36,290 nt of DNA from an uncultured Gammaproteobacteria bacterium (GTDB lineage: Bacteria; Patescibacteriota; Patescibacteriia; CAZVIU01), in assembly GCA_964626935.1 (NCBI GenBank), contig CAZVIU010000003.1, forward strand, positions 1 to 36,290, given 5' to 3'. Shown here in pieces: positions 12,787 through 19,153 of the stretch (the first letter of the stretch is position 1; the number at the start of each line of letters is the position of its first letter). Position numbers and translations under genes: made by a program. Below the pieces are notes generated by a model. The model was not told where the DNA came from. It made no database searches and was given only the letters and a program-made list of their open reading frames with translations.

Positions 12787-12856
12787 CATCTGTCCCCCGT
12801 AGGCGGAACATCTGACATCTGACACGGTGTTAAAAATAATATTTCAAATTGCAAAT

Positions 12857-15139: not shown

Positions 15140-15220
15140 TAATTAAGTCATTGGTCACTAAGTCATTGAGACAATTTTAAATGACTGTTAATTACTTAAT
15201 TACTTAATTACTTAATGACT
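15140..15220. repeat. Inverted octamer arrays spanning the spacer between SDR and GT4 genes
   Basis: The left arm is TAATTAAGTCATT..CTAAGTCATT. The right arm is AAATGACT GTTAATTA CTTAATTA CTTAATTA CTTAATGA. CTTAATTA is the reverse complement of TAATTAAG. The element begins right after the stop codon at 15137-15139, and ATG 15215 lies in its last unit. Confidence 0.85.
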
Positions 15221-16495
15221 CGAGTTGTAATCTTCAGCACCTTCTACGAGCCCTTTATGTCTGGGGCCGAACGAATGGTTAAAGAAGTAGTAGAGCGGTT
15301 GCAAGAGCGCTATTCGTTTATAATTGTTACTTCTCGTTTAAGACGCAATTTGCCCCAGTTTGTTGAGGTCGAACATCGACGCACTTTGCAGCGAGCAGGA
15401 GCGAGCGAAAGAAGGAGGTTCGACCTCGATGACAGTCGAATTAAAATTGTGCGGATCGGTTTTGGTTGGAAATTTGATAAATTTTTGTATCCAATTCTCG
15501 CGCCGTTTTACGCATTAAGATATAGGCCGAAGATTGTTCACGCGATAATGGAGAGCTACGCGGGAATCGCGCTTTTAGTTTATTCGTATCTCGCCAAACT
15601 TTCAAAACCCTTAATTCTTAATTCTCAATTCTTAATTCTAACCTTACGGCGGAGATCGAATCTCGACGCACTCTGCAGCGAGCAGGAGCGAGCGAAAGAA
15701 GGAGATTCGATCTCGCATAAAAATGTATTCACCATTCTAACACTCCAGAGCGGTGACCTTGACCTACCAGAAAAACAGGCGCGGATTCCTAGGTGGCTTT
15801 GGAAGCGAATACATTGTGCGCCCAATCTCATAGTTTCTATTGGAAATTCAATGGCCGAGCGTGCAAGAAAGTTGGGAGCAAAGAGTGTTCGAGTTATTCC
15901 CAACGGTGTTAATCTTACGGAGGTCCGACCTCCAAATATACGGAGGTCGGACCTCCGTCAACATCATATTGTATGTGTTGCCCGTCTTTCTCCTGAAAAG
16001 GGAATTGAATATCTAATCGAAGCAATGCCCTTCGTAATAGCGCAATACCCTGATGCCGAGCTGGTTTTGGTGGGAAATGGCGCATTGAGAGAAAAGCTAC
16101 AAGCTACAAGCTACAAGCTACAAGCTCATGTTGAGTTTAGAGGCACGTTATCTCATGAGAAAACTCTTGAAGAAATGGCCACCTCTGATATTCTCGTTTT
16201 GCCATCTTTAGCCGAGGGCATGGGCATTGTGTTAGTCGAAGCTCAAGCGCTCGGCGTTCCAGTAATCGGTACTAATGTTGGCGGTATTCCAGATGTTATT
16301 GAGCACGAAAGAACAGGCCTGCTCGTGCCGCCACATGACCCGCGCGCAATCGCGCAAGCAGTCATTCGCTTATTTCATGATCACGAACTAAGAGAACGCA
16401 TGGTTGTTGAAGCGGAAACGCGTCTTCTTAAATTTGATTGGCAGAAGATCGCGGAAGAATATAGGAACATTTATGATCAGGTATCAAGCGTATAA
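15215..16495 (+). CDS. GT4-family glycosyltransferase carrying five in-frame repeat insertions
   Basis: The C-terminal motif is ILVLPSLAEGMGIVLVEAQALGVPVIGTNVGGIPDVIEHERTGLLVPP, and ARLSPEKGIEYLIEA is present. The N-domain is interrupted by repeat-encoded segments (see repeats at 15365, 15611, 15652, 15917 and 16094). Confidence 0.85.
   Translation: MTRVVIFSTFYEPFMSGAERMVKEVVERLQERYSFIIVTSRLRRNLPQFVEVEHRRTLQRAGASERRRFDLDDSRIKIVRIGFGWKFDKFLYPILAPFYALRYRPKIVHAIMESYAGIALLVYSYLAKLSKPLILNSQFLILTLRRRSNLDALCSEQERAKEGDSISHKNVFTILTLQSGDLDLPEKQARIPRWLWKRIHCAPNLIVSIGNSMAERARKLGAKSVRVIPNGVNLTEVRPPNIRRSDLRQHHIVCVARLSPEKGIEYLIEAMPFVIAQYPDAELVLVGNGALREKLQATSYKLQAHVEFRGTLSHEKTLEEMATSDILVLPSLAEGMGIVLVEAQALGVPVIGTNVGGIPDVIEHERTGLLVPPHDPRAIAQAVIRLFHDHELRERMVVEAETRLLKFDWQKIAEEYRNIYDQVSSV
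15365..15427 (+). repeat. 63-nt hairpin element, copy 1 (GAGGTCGAAC-N43-GTTCGACCTC)
   Basis: It has a 10-bp perfect stem and is translated EVEHRRTLQRAGASERRRFDL, with element position 1 at codon position 1. Confidence 0.9.
15611..15640 (+). repeat. Heptamer array TTAATTC x4.3 inside CDS
   Basis: TTAATTC TTAATTC TCAATTC TTAATTC TA is translated LILNSQFLIL. Confidence 0.9.
15652..15714 (+). repeat. 63-nt hairpin element, copy 2 (GAGATCGAAT-N43-ATTCGATCTC)
   Basis: The core CGACGCACTYTGCAGCGAGCAGGAGCGAGCGAAAGAAGGAG matches copy 1, which differs at one position within it (the Y). It is read in a different frame, as RRSNLDALCSEQERAKEGDSIS. Confidence 0.9.
15917..15957 (+). repeat. Two adjacent copies of palindrome ACGGAGGTCSGACCTCC inside CDS
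   Basis: Copies lie at 15917-15933 and 15940-15957 and are translated TEVRPPNIRRSDLR. The arms resemble the stem of the 63-nt element. Confidence 0.9.
16094..16127 (+). repeat. Heptamer array (AAGCTAC)x4 perfect plus a partial unit, inside CDS
   Basis: This is a direct read, translated KLQATSYKLQA. Confidence 0.95.
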
Positions 16496-16562
16496 TGTCA
16501 TCGCGAGGCAGAAGGCCGTGGCGATCTTTATAAAGATTGTAACGCTTTTGCTCGCAATGACA
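16496..16562. repeat. Intergenic inverted repeat TGTCATCGCGAG / CTCGCAATGACA with internal palindrome
   Basis: The stem is 12 bp with one mismatch. The loop contains the perfect palindrome ATCTTTATAAAGAT (16524-16537). It starts 1 nt after the stop codon at 16493-16495, so it is a possible terminator or processing structure. Confidence 0.7.
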
Positions 16563-16572
16563 TGACTGACGA

Positions 16573-17880
16573 ATGAAGATTTTAATAGCAACAGGAATTT
16601 ATGGAGGTTTGGGAGATATAGGTGGCCCGGCAATATATTCAGAGTCTCTTGCGCGAGAGTTGATTAAGCGCGGGCACAAAGTGACCGTTGTTACTTATTC
16701 TAGTTCATATAAATCCGAAATCCGAAATCCTCCGCCAAAGGCGGATCAGTCTCTGACTGAGAAATCCGAAACAAATCCGAAATCAGAAATTCAAAACTCT
16801 AATTTTTTATTAGTACGAGTTCAACGCGAATTACCACTGCTATTGCGGTATAGTTTTTATAAATTGACAGCACTCTGGCACGGATGGCACGCAGATATCA
16901 TATACGCTCAAGATTCAGTTTCTGCAGGATTTCCTACAATGTTGGCTAATCTAATTTTGCGAAAACCATTTATTTTGAAAGTTATTGGCGATTATGCGTG
17001 GGAGCAGTATCAAAATCAAAAATCAAAAATCAAAAATCAAAAATTAGGTATGTTGCCAAGCAGTATTGATCATAATGGTTTGTCGCTAGACGATTTTTTA
17101 AATGAAAAACCCAGTGGCAAGATTAAGGCTTTTTGGAATATTGAAAGATGGGTGGCAAGACGCGCCAACAAGATTATTGTGCCGAGCAATTATCTAAGAG
17201 GCGTGGTGCAGAAGTGGGGGATTCAATCAGCCAAGATTGAGGTGATTTATAATTCTTTTGACTGGAGCTCATTACAAAACTCGATCTCTAAAGTTCCGGT
17301 CGAGACCCCAGAGGCCACACCGCATGATACTATCTATTCAGTCGGTCGTCTTGTTCCGTGGAAAGGATTTGATACGTTGATTGAAATAATGCCCGAGGCA
17401 TTGAAAGAAAAACCAAATACAGAGCTCGTGATCTACGGCGATGGACCGATGCGTGAAGGTTTAAGATTTAAGATTAAAGATTTAGGATTAGAGACTCATG
17501 TGAAACTTTTGGGAAGAATAGATCACGCGAAGCTCTTGGAAGCCTTGCAGGGTGAGCGCAAGTTTTTTGTGCTTAACAGTTCGTACGAAGGTATGTCTCA
17601 TCAAATTTTAGAGTGTCAGGCTTTGAAAATTCCTTGCGCGGTTAGCCGCGTCGGCGGAAATCCGGAAATTGTGGAGAACGAAAAAACTGGTTTGCTTTTT
17701 GAATATAATAATAAAGAACAGATCAAAAACGCAATCATACGACTGCTTGACGAGCAAGCACTCGTCGAACATATAAGAGAAAAAGCCTATGCACAGATTA
17801 AAGATCGGCACGATTTTAATCAAATGATTGAAAAAACGATAACCGTACTCCAATCCACACTATCATACTATATAGTATGA
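16573..17880 (+). CDS. GT4-family glycosyltransferase carrying in-frame repeat insertions
   Basis: The N-terminus is KILIATGIYGGLGDIGGPAIYSESLARELIKRGHKVTVVT. GRLVPWKGFDTLIE is present. The C-terminal motif is FVLNSSYEGMSHQILECQALKIPCAVSRVGGNPEIVENEKTGLLFE. Confidence 0.88.
   Translation: MKILIATGIYGGLGDIGGPAIYSESLARELIKRGHKVTVVTYSSSYKSEIRNPPPKADQSLTEKSETNPKSEIQNSNFLLVRVQRELPLLLRYSFYKLTALWHGWHADIIYAQDSVSAGFPTMLANLILRKPFILKVIGDYAWEQYQNQKSKIKNQKLGMLPSSIDHNGLSLDDFLNEKPSGKIKAFWNIERWVARRANKIIVPSNYLRGVVQKWGIQSAKIEVIYNSFDWSSLQNSISKVPVETPEATPHDTIYSVGRLVPWKGFDTLIEIMPEALKEKPNTELVIYGDGPMREGLRFKIKDLGLETHVKLLGRIDHAKLLEALQGERKFFVLNSSYEGMSHQILECQALKIPCAVSRVGGNPEIVENEKTGLLFEYNNKEQIKNAIIRLLDEQALVEHIREKAYAQIKDRHDFNQMIEKTITVLQSTLSYYIV
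16711..16800 (+). repeat. 90-nt composite module: AAATCCG array, two hairpins, AAATCNG array; exactly 30 codons
   Basis: AAATCCG AAATCCG AAATCCT is followed by TCCGCC-AAA-GGCGGA, then TCAGTC-TCT-GACTGA, then AAATCCG..AAATCCG AAATCAG AAATTCA AAACTCT. It is translated KSEIRNPPPKADQSLTEKSETNPKSEIQNS. Confidence 0.9.
17011..17044 (+). repeat. Heptamer array (CAAAAAT)x4 perfect, preceded by CAAAAT, inside CDS
   Basis: This is a direct read, translated QNQKSKIKNQK. Confidence 0.95.
17460..17494 (+). repeat. Degenerate heptamer array TTTAAGA x5 inside CDS
   Basis: TTTAAGA TTTAAGA TTAAAGA TTTAGGA TTAGAGA is translated LRFKIKDLGLE. Confidence 0.8.
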
Positions 17881-17887
17881 TAGTGTG
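17856..17887. repeat. Perfect 32-nt palindrome spanning the stop codon of the GT4 gene
   Basis: CACACTATCATACTAT|ATAGTATGATAGTGTG. The TGA stop at 17878-17880 lies in the right arm. It encodes the C-terminal tail STLSYYIV and is a candidate terminator hairpin. Confidence 0.9.
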
Positions 17888-17926
17888 AGGTTCAGTTAGA
17901 TTGTCGCTGTTTCTACGGTGATAACT

Positions 17927-19153
17927 ATGCGGGTTTTAATAATAAGTCTTGATCAATCAATCCTAGATCCGGCGTCAGAAGCGCGAAGCAGGATGTTGGA
18001 ATATGCGGCGCTCGCAGATGGTTTATATGTTTTTGTATTTGCGAAACGCGGATCTACACGCGGATCTTCTCGCGCGGATCTACACGCGGATCAGAATTTA
18101 TTTATATATAGATTCAGTGCAAGCACTGTCGGTTGGATTAAGGCGTTATTTTTCGGTAGACGACTCGTGCGCGAAAAACAAATTGATGTAGTAAGTTCGC
18201 AGGATCCCTTTGAAACCGGCCTACTCGGATATCTAATTGTTAAATTGATGCACTTTCATACTATAAAGTATGAAAGTGCCAGTACAGTAGGTTTGAATGT
18301 GCAGTTGCACGGGGACTTTTATGGAAATCCATATTGGCGAATTGAACAATTATTGAATCGGTTGCGGTGGCATCTTGGATTATTTGTTATGCGTCGCGCT
18401 GGCAGCATTCGTGTTGTTAGCGAAAGAATAAAACAAAGCTTAGAAGCAAGAATTAAGAATCAAGAATTAAGGATTATCAAGGCTCCTATTTATACGGACA
18501 TAGAATTTTTTCGTACTGCCAAACCGATTTTCAACTTGAAAGAAAAGTATCCACAATTCAATTTTATAATTATCACCGTTGCTAATCTTGTGCCTGTTAA
18601 AAACTTAGAATTTCTTATTAACGCGATGAAAAAGCTGCATGAAATTTTAACCAATGCCGGATTGGTGATCGTCGGTGATGGTCCACTCCACAAAAAGCTA
18701 AAAGCTAAAAGCTACAAGCTACAAGCTAACAATTACATTATTTTTGAGGGTACGCAAAAAGGTTTAGTTTCATATTATAAAGGTGCTGATTGCTTGGCGC
18801 TTGTTTCCAAGTACGAGGGTTGGGGCAGGGTAGTGGTGGAGGCCGTCGCTAGCGGTTTGCCCATTGTGATGAGTGATGTTGGGTTAGCGGGAGAATTGAT
18901 TAGGGACGAAGAGAGCGGTCTTGTTGTGCTGAAGCGAAACTTCGACCAATGGAAGTTTCGCTTCGATCAGAACGCCGAAGATGACCTAGTTCGCGCGCTT
19001 TCACAAGTCTATTTTAACGAAAATTTAAGAAAAAAATTGATTGCTGGCGCGACAAATGCCTTGCAGCAGTTACCCTTAAAACAAGAAACACTAGAGTTGA
19101 TTAAAAAGTCGTGGGAGCTTGCAACGCGTAAAAGCAACGGTATTCACGATTAA
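17927..19153 (+). CDS. GT4-family glycosyltransferase carrying five in-frame repeat insertions
   Basis: MRVLIISLDQSILDPASEARSRMLEYA is the N-terminus. The C-terminal motif is LALVSKYEGWGRVVVEAVASGLPIVMSDVGLAGELIRDEESGLVV. ATG 17927 is preferred over GTG 17918. Confidence 0.85.
   Translation: MRVLIISLDQSILDPASEARSRMLEYAALADGLYVFVFAKRGSTRGSSRADLHADQNLFIYRFSASTVGWIKALFFGRRLVREKQIDVVSSQDPFETGLLGYLIVKLMHFHTIKYESASTVGLNVQLHGDFYGNPYWRIEQLLNRLRWHLGLFVMRRAGSIRVVSERIKQSLEARIKNQELRIIKAPIYTDIEFFRTAKPIFNLKEKYPQFNFIIITVANLVPVKNLEFLINAMKKLHEILTNAGLVIVGDGPLHKKLKAKSYKLQANNYIIFEGTQKGLVSYYKGADCLALVSKYEGWGRVVVEAVASGLPIVMSDVGLAGELIRDEESGLVVLKRNFDQWKFRFDQNAEDDLVRALSQVYFNENLRKKLIAGATNALQQLPLKQETLELIKKSWELATRKSNGIHD
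18047..18092 (+). repeat. Four copies of CGCGGATCT spaced 12/14/12 nt inside CDS
   Basis: CGCGGATCTACA CGCGGATCTTCTCG CGCGGATCTACA CGCGGATC is translated RGSTRGSSRADLHAD. The first two copies are read as R-G-S and the last two as A-D-L. Confidence 0.9.
18250..18279 (+). repeat. Hairpin GCACTTTCATACT-ATAA-AGTATGAAAGTGC inside CDS
   Basis: It has a perfect 13-bp stem and is translated MHFHTIKYESA. It shares the TCATACTAT..AGTATGA core with the palindrome at 17856-17887. Confidence 0.9.
18448..18475 (+). repeat. Heptamer array AAGAATT x4 inside CDS (same family as 13383 and 15611)
   Basis: AAGAATT AAGAATC AAGAATT AAGGATT is translated RIKNQELRI. Confidence 0.9.
18695..18729 (+). repeat. Heptamer array AAGCTAM x5 inside CDS
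   Basis: AAGCTAA AAGCTAA AAGCTAC AAGCTAC AAGCTAA is translated KLKAKSYKLQAN. The family and protein position match 16094-16127. Confidence 0.95.
18931..18964 (+). repeat. Hairpin GAAGCGAAACTTC-N8-GAAGTTTCGCTTC inside CDS
   Basis: It has a perfect 13-bp stem and is translated KRNFDQWKFRF. It shares the GAAGCG/CGCTTC core with the REP-like family at 3181-4211. Confidence 0.9.

Follow-up and report, generated by a model that had tools for sequence, protein, structure and literature searches.

Very small hairpin-forming repeats embedded in tandem heptanucleotide arrays have, to our knowledge, been reported so far only for Nostoc, and the small dispersed repeats (SDR) of Nostoc punctiforme and its relatives were reportedly described in 2008 by Elhai and colleagues. 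Repetitive extragenic palindromic (REP) sequences and the related REPINs are short GC-rich palindromes with stems of 5-13 bp and short loops that occur mostly as inverted pairs (PMC3116915; PMC3733652). They are tagged by a GTAG or CGTC tetranucleotide at one end, some copies lie within open reading frames (ORFs), including those of replication and repair genes, and each of the tabulated families is limited to a few species or genera (PMC3733652). Rickettsia palindromic elements (RPE; Ogata et al. 2000, as cited in PMC3184786 and PMC3733652) are larger, ~100-150 bp with a CGTC tag (PMC3733652), and are inserted in frame in protein-coding genes, often essential ones (PMC3184786, PMC3733652). 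The present work concerns a 90-nt segment with features of all three systems, located at positions 16711-16800 of a 36,290-nt stretch of DNA from an uncultured member of the Patescibacteria (assembly GCA_964626935.1, contig CAZVIU010000003.1; this whole stretch is hereafter called the window). The segment lies within a gene for a GT4-family glycosyltransferase, and we consider it probable that it is a nested composite in which two kinds of repeat, both abundant in this genome, are combined, namely a tandem array of AAATCCG-type heptamers and a 30-nt inverted pair of hairpins.

An initial annotation of the window had described the segment as heptamers, two hairpins and heptamers again, and this order is confirmed on the sequence, with all of its parts on the + strand. 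The left part of the host array (16711..16730) reads AAATCCG AAATCCG AAATCC, a period-7 repeat of 2.9 copies with 100% matches in Tandem Repeats Finder (TRF); the annotated AAATCCG array is thus present, at 2.9 units and not three. It is followed by hairpin A, TCCGCC-AAA-GGCGGA (16731..16745), the canonical unit of a phylum-wide 15-nt family, and by hairpin B, TCAGTC-TCT-GACTGA (16746..16760), a diverged inverted copy of this unit according to the pair analysis given below. Together they form the 30-nt inverted hairpin pair (16731..16760), read here as P-PPKADQSLT-E, that we take as the inserted element. The right part of the split array, G AAATCCG AAAC (16761..16772), carries an end motif and is succeeded by a second, decaying run, AAATCCG AAATCAG AAATTCA AAACTCT (16773..16800), in which 7, 6, 5 and 4 of 7 positions match the heptamer; the TRF rows on the right-hand run cover 16761-16790. 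The two hairpins have perfect stems of 6 bp and loops of 3 nt, and the centroid fold consists of the same two small hairpins for RNA and DNA alike (DNA fold z-score -2.45, with 1 of 200 shuffles folding equally well). By chance, each 15-mer would be expected 0.01-0.06 times in the window. The segment starts on a codon boundary, as had been annotated ((16711-16573) mod 3 = 0 in ORF 16573-17880), and is translated as KSEIRNPPPKADQSLTEKSETNPKSEIQNS. Its length of exactly 30 codons holds as regards the frame and is less firm as regards the 3' limit, which is partly arbitrary given the 5/7 and 4/7 matches of the last two units.

Excision of the 30 nt at 16731-16760 joins AAATCC to G and leaves four perfect copies of AAATCCG ahead of AAAC and the decaying run, and no shifted excision is equivalent because the boundary bases differ. 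The supposed direct-repeat flanks are therefore one array split by a separate 30-nt element, and the proposal of a single self-contained 90-nt unit is not supported; moreover, the only part shared with a second composite in a valine-tRNA ligase gene is 55 nt long. On sequence grounds, an array that existed before and was split by the 30-nt element would be the simplest reading. Each of the two layers also occurs separately. AAATCCG-type arrays (~60 nt at this locus) are present at no fewer than 14 loci of this 1.0-Mb, 125-contig genome and are mostly hairpin-free (at least nine other loci), among a genome-wide total of 269 period-7 and 204 period-8 tandem arrays. The hairpin pair, in turn, is found with other flanks at several loci of the same genome, and without AAATCCG arrays in more than 100 other genomes.

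Restoration of a heptamer array in phase after excision was obtained for 7 of the 50 hairpin blocks in the genome, including the glycosyltransferase and valine-tRNA ligase copies, and also in another genome, within an AAAAATC array (L038). In-phase insertion was observed in AAATCCG, ACATCTG and CAAATTT arrays. The window itself holds a further such copy of the hairpin family, TCCCCCGTAGGCGGA (12793..12807, + strand), which is intergenic by a rough gene call and splits an ACATCTG array in phase, the junction matching at 7/7 positions after excision. Nesting goes further in five composites (C10:15583, C2:18462, C27:7294, C51:6517 and C19:10223), where a TCCGCC hairpin is found inside a CCCGACG...CGTCGGG hairpin, in four of the five cases inside GAATTAA arrays. 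Most of the AAATCCG-type arrays listed end in CGAAAC, as judged by inspection of the printed sequences, which suggests that the arrays may themselves be copied elements rather than products of local slippage. As a separate observation, the AAATCCG/AAATTCG arrays at C5:10394-10424, C27:2113-2152 and C35:2172-2200 have long hairpins with stems of 12-16 bp directly 5' of them, unrelated in sequence and similar in shape.

The search for other copies suggested by the initial annotation led to a second core composite (C49:2704-2760), located in another reading frame within an 813-aa ORF for valine-tRNA ligase (ValRS; NF004349, 828 bits, cut-off 704). It consists of AAATCCG AAATCC, hairpin A, GCAGCCTCTGGCCGA and G AAATCCG AAAC, a 55-nt core that ends in the same 12 nt as follow the pair in the window. 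The composite peptide is LRQRRSSLWPRNPKL in ValRS and PPPKADQSLTEKSET in the glycosyltransferase; since the two copies are read in different frames, their identity is one of DNA and not of peptide. Hairpin B as it stands in the window would create a TGA stop in the ValRS frame, and the ValRS copy has a G at this position together with the matching C on the other arm. ValRS orthologues from ten other genomes are ~15-30 residues shorter at the site of the composite. Further in-frame copies of the family were identified in PolA, TrmD, triosephosphate isomerase, a CobA-like adenosyltransferase and a Wzy_C protein. We also observed that hairpin B of the ValRS copy (C49:2732-2746) is read S-S-L-W-P, and that L-W-P aligns under the native G-W-P of most orthologues, which is otherwise missing from this ValRS; the alignment may be a coincidence.

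The hairpin family is prominent in this genome, which contains 589 perfect hairpins of the 6-3-6 type as compared with 331-355 in Markov simulations. TCCGCC-N3-GGCGGA is the commonest of them, with 28 perfect copies vs 13 for the next stem, and 55 copies are counted when up to one mismatch is allowed. Sampling of the class (201 genomes) showed the same hairpin in 157, at up to 74 copies (0-2 per genome for a reversed control). The 30-nt pair, at up to two mismatches, was recovered from 106 of these genomes, at up to 33 copies, as well as from 22 of 144 genomes that represent other classes of the phylum (reversed control 0 in both sets); these tallies are samples of related genomes and not independent counts. 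Almost every one of the 76 listed pairs has a purine-rich first loop (AAA, AGA) and a T-rich second loop (TTT, TCT), an order that identifies the pair as a unit directly joined to its inverted copy. Two mismatches are present in 41 of these pairs, and in 31 of the 41 they are Watson-Crick compensatory within one 15-mer, vs 1.4% expected, giving the variants TCAGCC/GGCTGA, CCCGCC/GGCGGG, TGCGCC/GGCGCA and TCCTCC/GGAGGA. Folding of the pair as one long 15-bp hairpin was considered as well and rejected, with none of the 41 two-mismatch variants being compensatory in that form. Hairpin B as written occurs once in the genome; it corresponds to the TCAGCC-TCT-GGCTGA variant, save that pair 5/11 has undergone a compensatory change from C-G to T-A, and the exact putative parent, TCCGCCAAAGGCGGATCAGCCTCTGGCTGA, is present at two loci of another genome. 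The canonical pair is stop-free in all six frames and so can survive within genes as a 10-residue loop. A search of Rfam returned a chance-level match only (RAGATH-33, 17 bits vs a cut-off of 120 bits), and literature searches by sequence and keyword retrieved no description of the element, the sequence matches being BamHI cloning primers.

Comparison of the flanks of 60 pairs from many genomes points to a preferred site of the form T-Y-Y before and R-R-A after the pair, with a pyrimidine at position -2 in 99% of cases. A direct repeat of the flanks is seen for 1 of the 60 pairs, that is, there is no target duplication. In the glycosyltransferase gene the pair separates C6 from G7 in one heptamer (CC^GA), the only YY^RR step in AAATCCG. 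The junction of CCGAAATCC with TCCGCC...GGCGGA and the remainder of the pair recurs in three other genomes, two of the Patescibacteria and one represented by a contig binned as Ignavibacteriales, each time with different pair subfamilies and right flanks, and this variety at one junction favors a preferred site. In the genome-wide scan for this junction, two of the five matches were due to chance, in GC-rich genomes without the pair. The association with heptamers is visible in the flanks too: period-7 flanks accompany 6 of 55 hairpins vs 0.8% of random sites (13-fold), no other period is enriched, and contact with a TRF array is seen for 7 of the 55 where 1.6 would be expected. The TRF threshold (score of at least 30) misses two-unit arrays, and the flank-periodicity test was therefore added. 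In three other genomes (L082, L085 and L096) the 30-nt pair was observed at GGAAT(T/C)^GAACC in an apparent duplicated 3' half of a tRNA gene, with a matching intact T-arm sequence a few bases downstream of the pair.

The host gene (16573..17880, + strand) encodes a 435-aa protein (P0001) assigned to the GT4 family by the Pfam signatures PF13439/PF13579 (Glyco_transf_4) and PF00534/PF13692 (Glycos_transf_1); the GT4 matches in NCBIfam are partial and all below cut-off. Its AlphaFold model (mean pLDDT 79.5, pTM 0.80) shows strands alternating with helices, and residues 47-75, between strands 36-43 and 79-84, have pLDDT values <50. The 90 nt are accordingly predicted to encode a disordered, hydrophilic, 30-residue surface loop, which in the model joins strands 2 and 3 of the N-terminal Rossmann-like domain. 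We aligned the protein with 12 orthologues from other genomes (28-41% identity) and 11 from the protein database (47-57%). The near-direct passage from strand to strand that the initial annotation had ascribed to other GT4 enzymes is borne out by a much shorter loop (~0-13 residues vs ~35) in 11 of the 12 and in all 11, respectively; the exceptional orthologue carries a different long repeat-derived insert in the same loop. The nearest orthologue (57%; L030:383-1570, P0002) has a 33-nt array of the AAGAATT type there, read RIKNHELRIKN. The occupation of one loop by different repeats points to a permissive site that was filled independently, and the existence of orthologues without the loop suggests that it is tolerated rather than needed. 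The interpretation of the segment as an insertion relative to orthologues is thus upheld. The segment is not conserved as a protein sequence, and its structured core belongs to a dispersed repeat family. The proposed check of empty sites was answered in part: orthologues without the insert exist, and a clean empty site was not among them, the nearest orthologue being 57% identical and carrying the AAGAATT array.

A second repeat was noted in the same gene, a perfect (AAAATCA)x4.7 array at 17012-17044 that encodes QNQKSKIKNQK and lies in a further part of the model with low confidence (residues 152-168); the peptide NQKSKIKNQ occurs at the matching site in two GT4 orthologues (P0029, P0059) that are only 47-48% identical. 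Over positions 15190-18874 of the window, contig L101 of another metagenome has the identical sequence; leftward it joins a DnaK-like gene at the TTAATTAC octamer array (window 15188-15220; L101:1-136), and this junction is either a rearrangement at a repeat or a chimeric assembly.

In the scenario that we propose for this nested composite, the 30-nt pair would have been inserted into a heptamer array that was already in place. The pair would be, or would once have been, mobile as single-stranded hairpin DNA with a preference for YY^RR targets, and the 55-nt core may either have been copied between the glycosyltransferase and ValRS genes or reflect arrival of the same pair subfamily at identical positions of two AAATCCG arrays. 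Candidate movers are encoded in the genome by three Y1/HUH transposase-like genes (C99:758-1411, C50:1-587 and C38:453-1130) resembling REP-associated tyrosine transposases (RAYT); they match PF01797 above cut-off, and their best NCBIfam match, REP-associated tyrosine transposase NF047646, scores 44-45 bits, below the cut-off of 80. These genes are candidates only. Across the 201 class genomes, the presence of Y1 is weakly associated with the number of hairpins (median 5 vs 1.5, uncorrected for relatedness). One of the three genes (C38:453-1130) lies between inverted copies of a GC-rich hairpin of another sequence (GGGCCCGAAGCCCCGA / TCGGGGCTTCGGGCCC), a typical REP-RAYT arrangement.

Several observations count against this scenario. 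No pair of filled and empty sites is available among close relatives, so that mobility has to be deduced from dispersal: the protein search was empty between 57% and 100% identity, and the only other contigs with the glycosyltransferase gene, located by an exact-protein look-up and by scanning metagenomes for the 24-nt left flank, are 100% identical. Hairpin copies in heptamer arrays are a minority (~11-14%). Many of the compensatory variants represent a few widespread subfamilies and hence few events rather than 31. The gene calls used for the census of hairpin blocks are rough (longest non-overlapping ORFs). Finally, TCCGCC hairpins flank none of the three Y1 genes of this genome, and no Y1 gene was detected in six class genomes that carry 20-73 hairpins.

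A different explanation of the two composites is that array and pair together constitute the mobile unit, which was copied as a block from gene to gene. The glycosyltransferase and ValRS copies have in common 13 nt of array, the pair, its phase and the identical tail, and in both the pair is of one subfamily (AAA/TCT loops and a CAG in hairpin B), for which none of the 20 pairs fetched from elsewhere lies in an AAATCCG array. Loop types, as judged by eye, also follow heptamer families, with GCA/TGC in the company of ACATCTG (~9 cases), TAA/TTA in that of CGAACTA (~8) and AAA/TCT pairs in that of AAATCCG, and the CGAAAC end is common to most arrays of the AAATCCG type. However, the common part amounts to only 55 of the 90 nt and is known from no more than two copies, each layer occurs far more often without the other, and the recurrence of the junction in three genomes with other subfamilies and right flanks is a better fit to the preferred CC^GA site. 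We therefore regard block copying as unlikely.

The position of a heptamer array inside a glycan gene could also be explained by a contingency switch, in which gain or loss of 7-nt units by slipped-strand mispairing would shift the frame and toggle a surface-glycan enzyme. The unit of 7 nt is not divisible by 3, and tandem arrays of periods 7 and 8 are plentiful in the genome. The perfect run, however, comprises just 2.9 units on the left and 1.6 on the right and is interrupted by the pair; two independent metagenome contigs are identical across the segment, with no length variation seen; and the same composite is present in the essential ValRS gene, where switching off would be lethal. We regard a switch here as very improbable.

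Still less credence can be given to a local origin, by slippage and palindrome formation within the glycosyltransferase gene, in which nothing moved. Template switching can yield perfect inverted repeats, and the ValRS gene offers a possible example in a 30-nt hairpin just 5' of the composite (C49:2674-2703; TTCGCCGCGCTGC-TCTC-GCAGCGCGGCGAA, 13-bp stem), in which the left arm codes for F-A-A-L, residues that are native and conserved; the right arm accordingly resembles native coding sequence duplicated in inverted orientation, and this hairpin may be a clue to how inserts start. For the hairpin pair a local origin is nevertheless contradicted by the occurrence of the same 15-nt unit and 30-nt pair in more than 100 genomes of many genera. 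Equally hard to credit is selection on the loop or the hairpins at this locus, as an enzyme linker or as an mRNA structure that slows translation between folding units: 9 of 10 pairs in long ORFs of other genomes use a small-residue frame (SAxGGSAxGG) and the stems are kept by compensatory change, but orthologues lack the loop, the same DNA is read in three frames across genes, the frame bias is as expected from purifying selection on a neutral insert, and no Rfam family matches.

The nested composite remains the preferred reading, and it bears on genome evolution in this phylum. Patescibacteria genomes are among the smallest of free or epibiotic bacteria. The small genome analyzed here nonetheless holds short repeats in their hundreds, and many are translated within essential genes (ValRS, PolA, TrmD and triosephosphate isomerase). 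The persistence of one 30-nt sequence across genera, with compensatory changes in its stems, would imply either a conserved recognition machinery or horizontal spread, and no description of either for Patescibacteria was found in the literature searched. We tentatively suggest, as a possibility that we ourselves hold to be doubtful, that arrays and pairs are two interacting layers of an undescribed Patescibacteria-wide mobile system, characterized by single-strand insertion at YY^RR, a preference for heptamers or slipped DNA, the lack of target duplication and an unrecognized enzyme. If this were true, the pair would be among the smallest mobile elements and would keep adding loops of 10-30 residues to essential proteins despite genome reduction. 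The clean in-phase split defines the insertion site CC^GA, which provides a testable substrate for finding the enzyme. In practical terms, such inserts inflate or distort protein alignments and gene calls in genomes of the Candidate Phyla Radiation.

The element resembles REP/REPIN sequences, RPE and the Nostoc SDR, yet it fails membership of the first two and stands apart from the SDR by its phylum. Miniature inverted-repeat transposable elements, which have terminal inverted repeats and target duplications and are usually >50 bp, were rejected as a class in view of the single flank repeat among 60 pairs and the length of 30 nt. With contingency loci based on simple sequence repeats, the locus has in common a tandem repeat of a length not divisible by 3 in a glycosyltransferase ORF, and it differs in the short interrupted run, the lack of observed length variation and the presence of the same composite in an essential tRNA synthetase gene. 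The likeness to RPE lies in palindromes inserted in frame in unrelated, often essential genes, in the extra surface segments that they encode and in small host-dependent genomes; in contrast to RPE, the element is 30 nt long, belongs to another lineage and is inserted within a heptamer array. The 15-nt units with 6-bp stems and the 30-nt pairs correspond to the short imperfect palindromes (20-40 nt) and frequent inverted pairs of REP/REPIN, which RAYT transposases mobilize, and three RAYT-like Y1 genes are at hand in the genome. Here, however, the flanks of the 60 pairs contain no GTAG or CGTC and the ends are TCC...GGA with YY/RR, the units abut without a spacer, no cognate RAYT is flanked by the hairpin, the copies are depleted in genes yet not predominantly extragenic (23 of 50 blocks, ~46%, in rough coding calls vs a coding fraction of 85%), and the same sequence is common to many genera. 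There is also a correspondence with the Nostoc SDR, compared by description and not by sequence: both are very small dispersed hairpins (21-27 nt in Nostoc, 15/30 nt here), often embedded in tandem heptanucleotide repeats, with nested insertions, compensatory stems and no known mobilizing enzyme, and the SDR feature of a hairpin of <30 nt within tandem heptamers, with further nesting, is present in this genome. The SDR belong to one coherent subgroup of Cyanobacteria, whereas the Patescibacteria element is an abutting inverted pair that is distributed phylum-wide and has many of its copies translated inside housekeeping genes, and it thereby extends a Nostoc-like pattern to an unrelated phylum.

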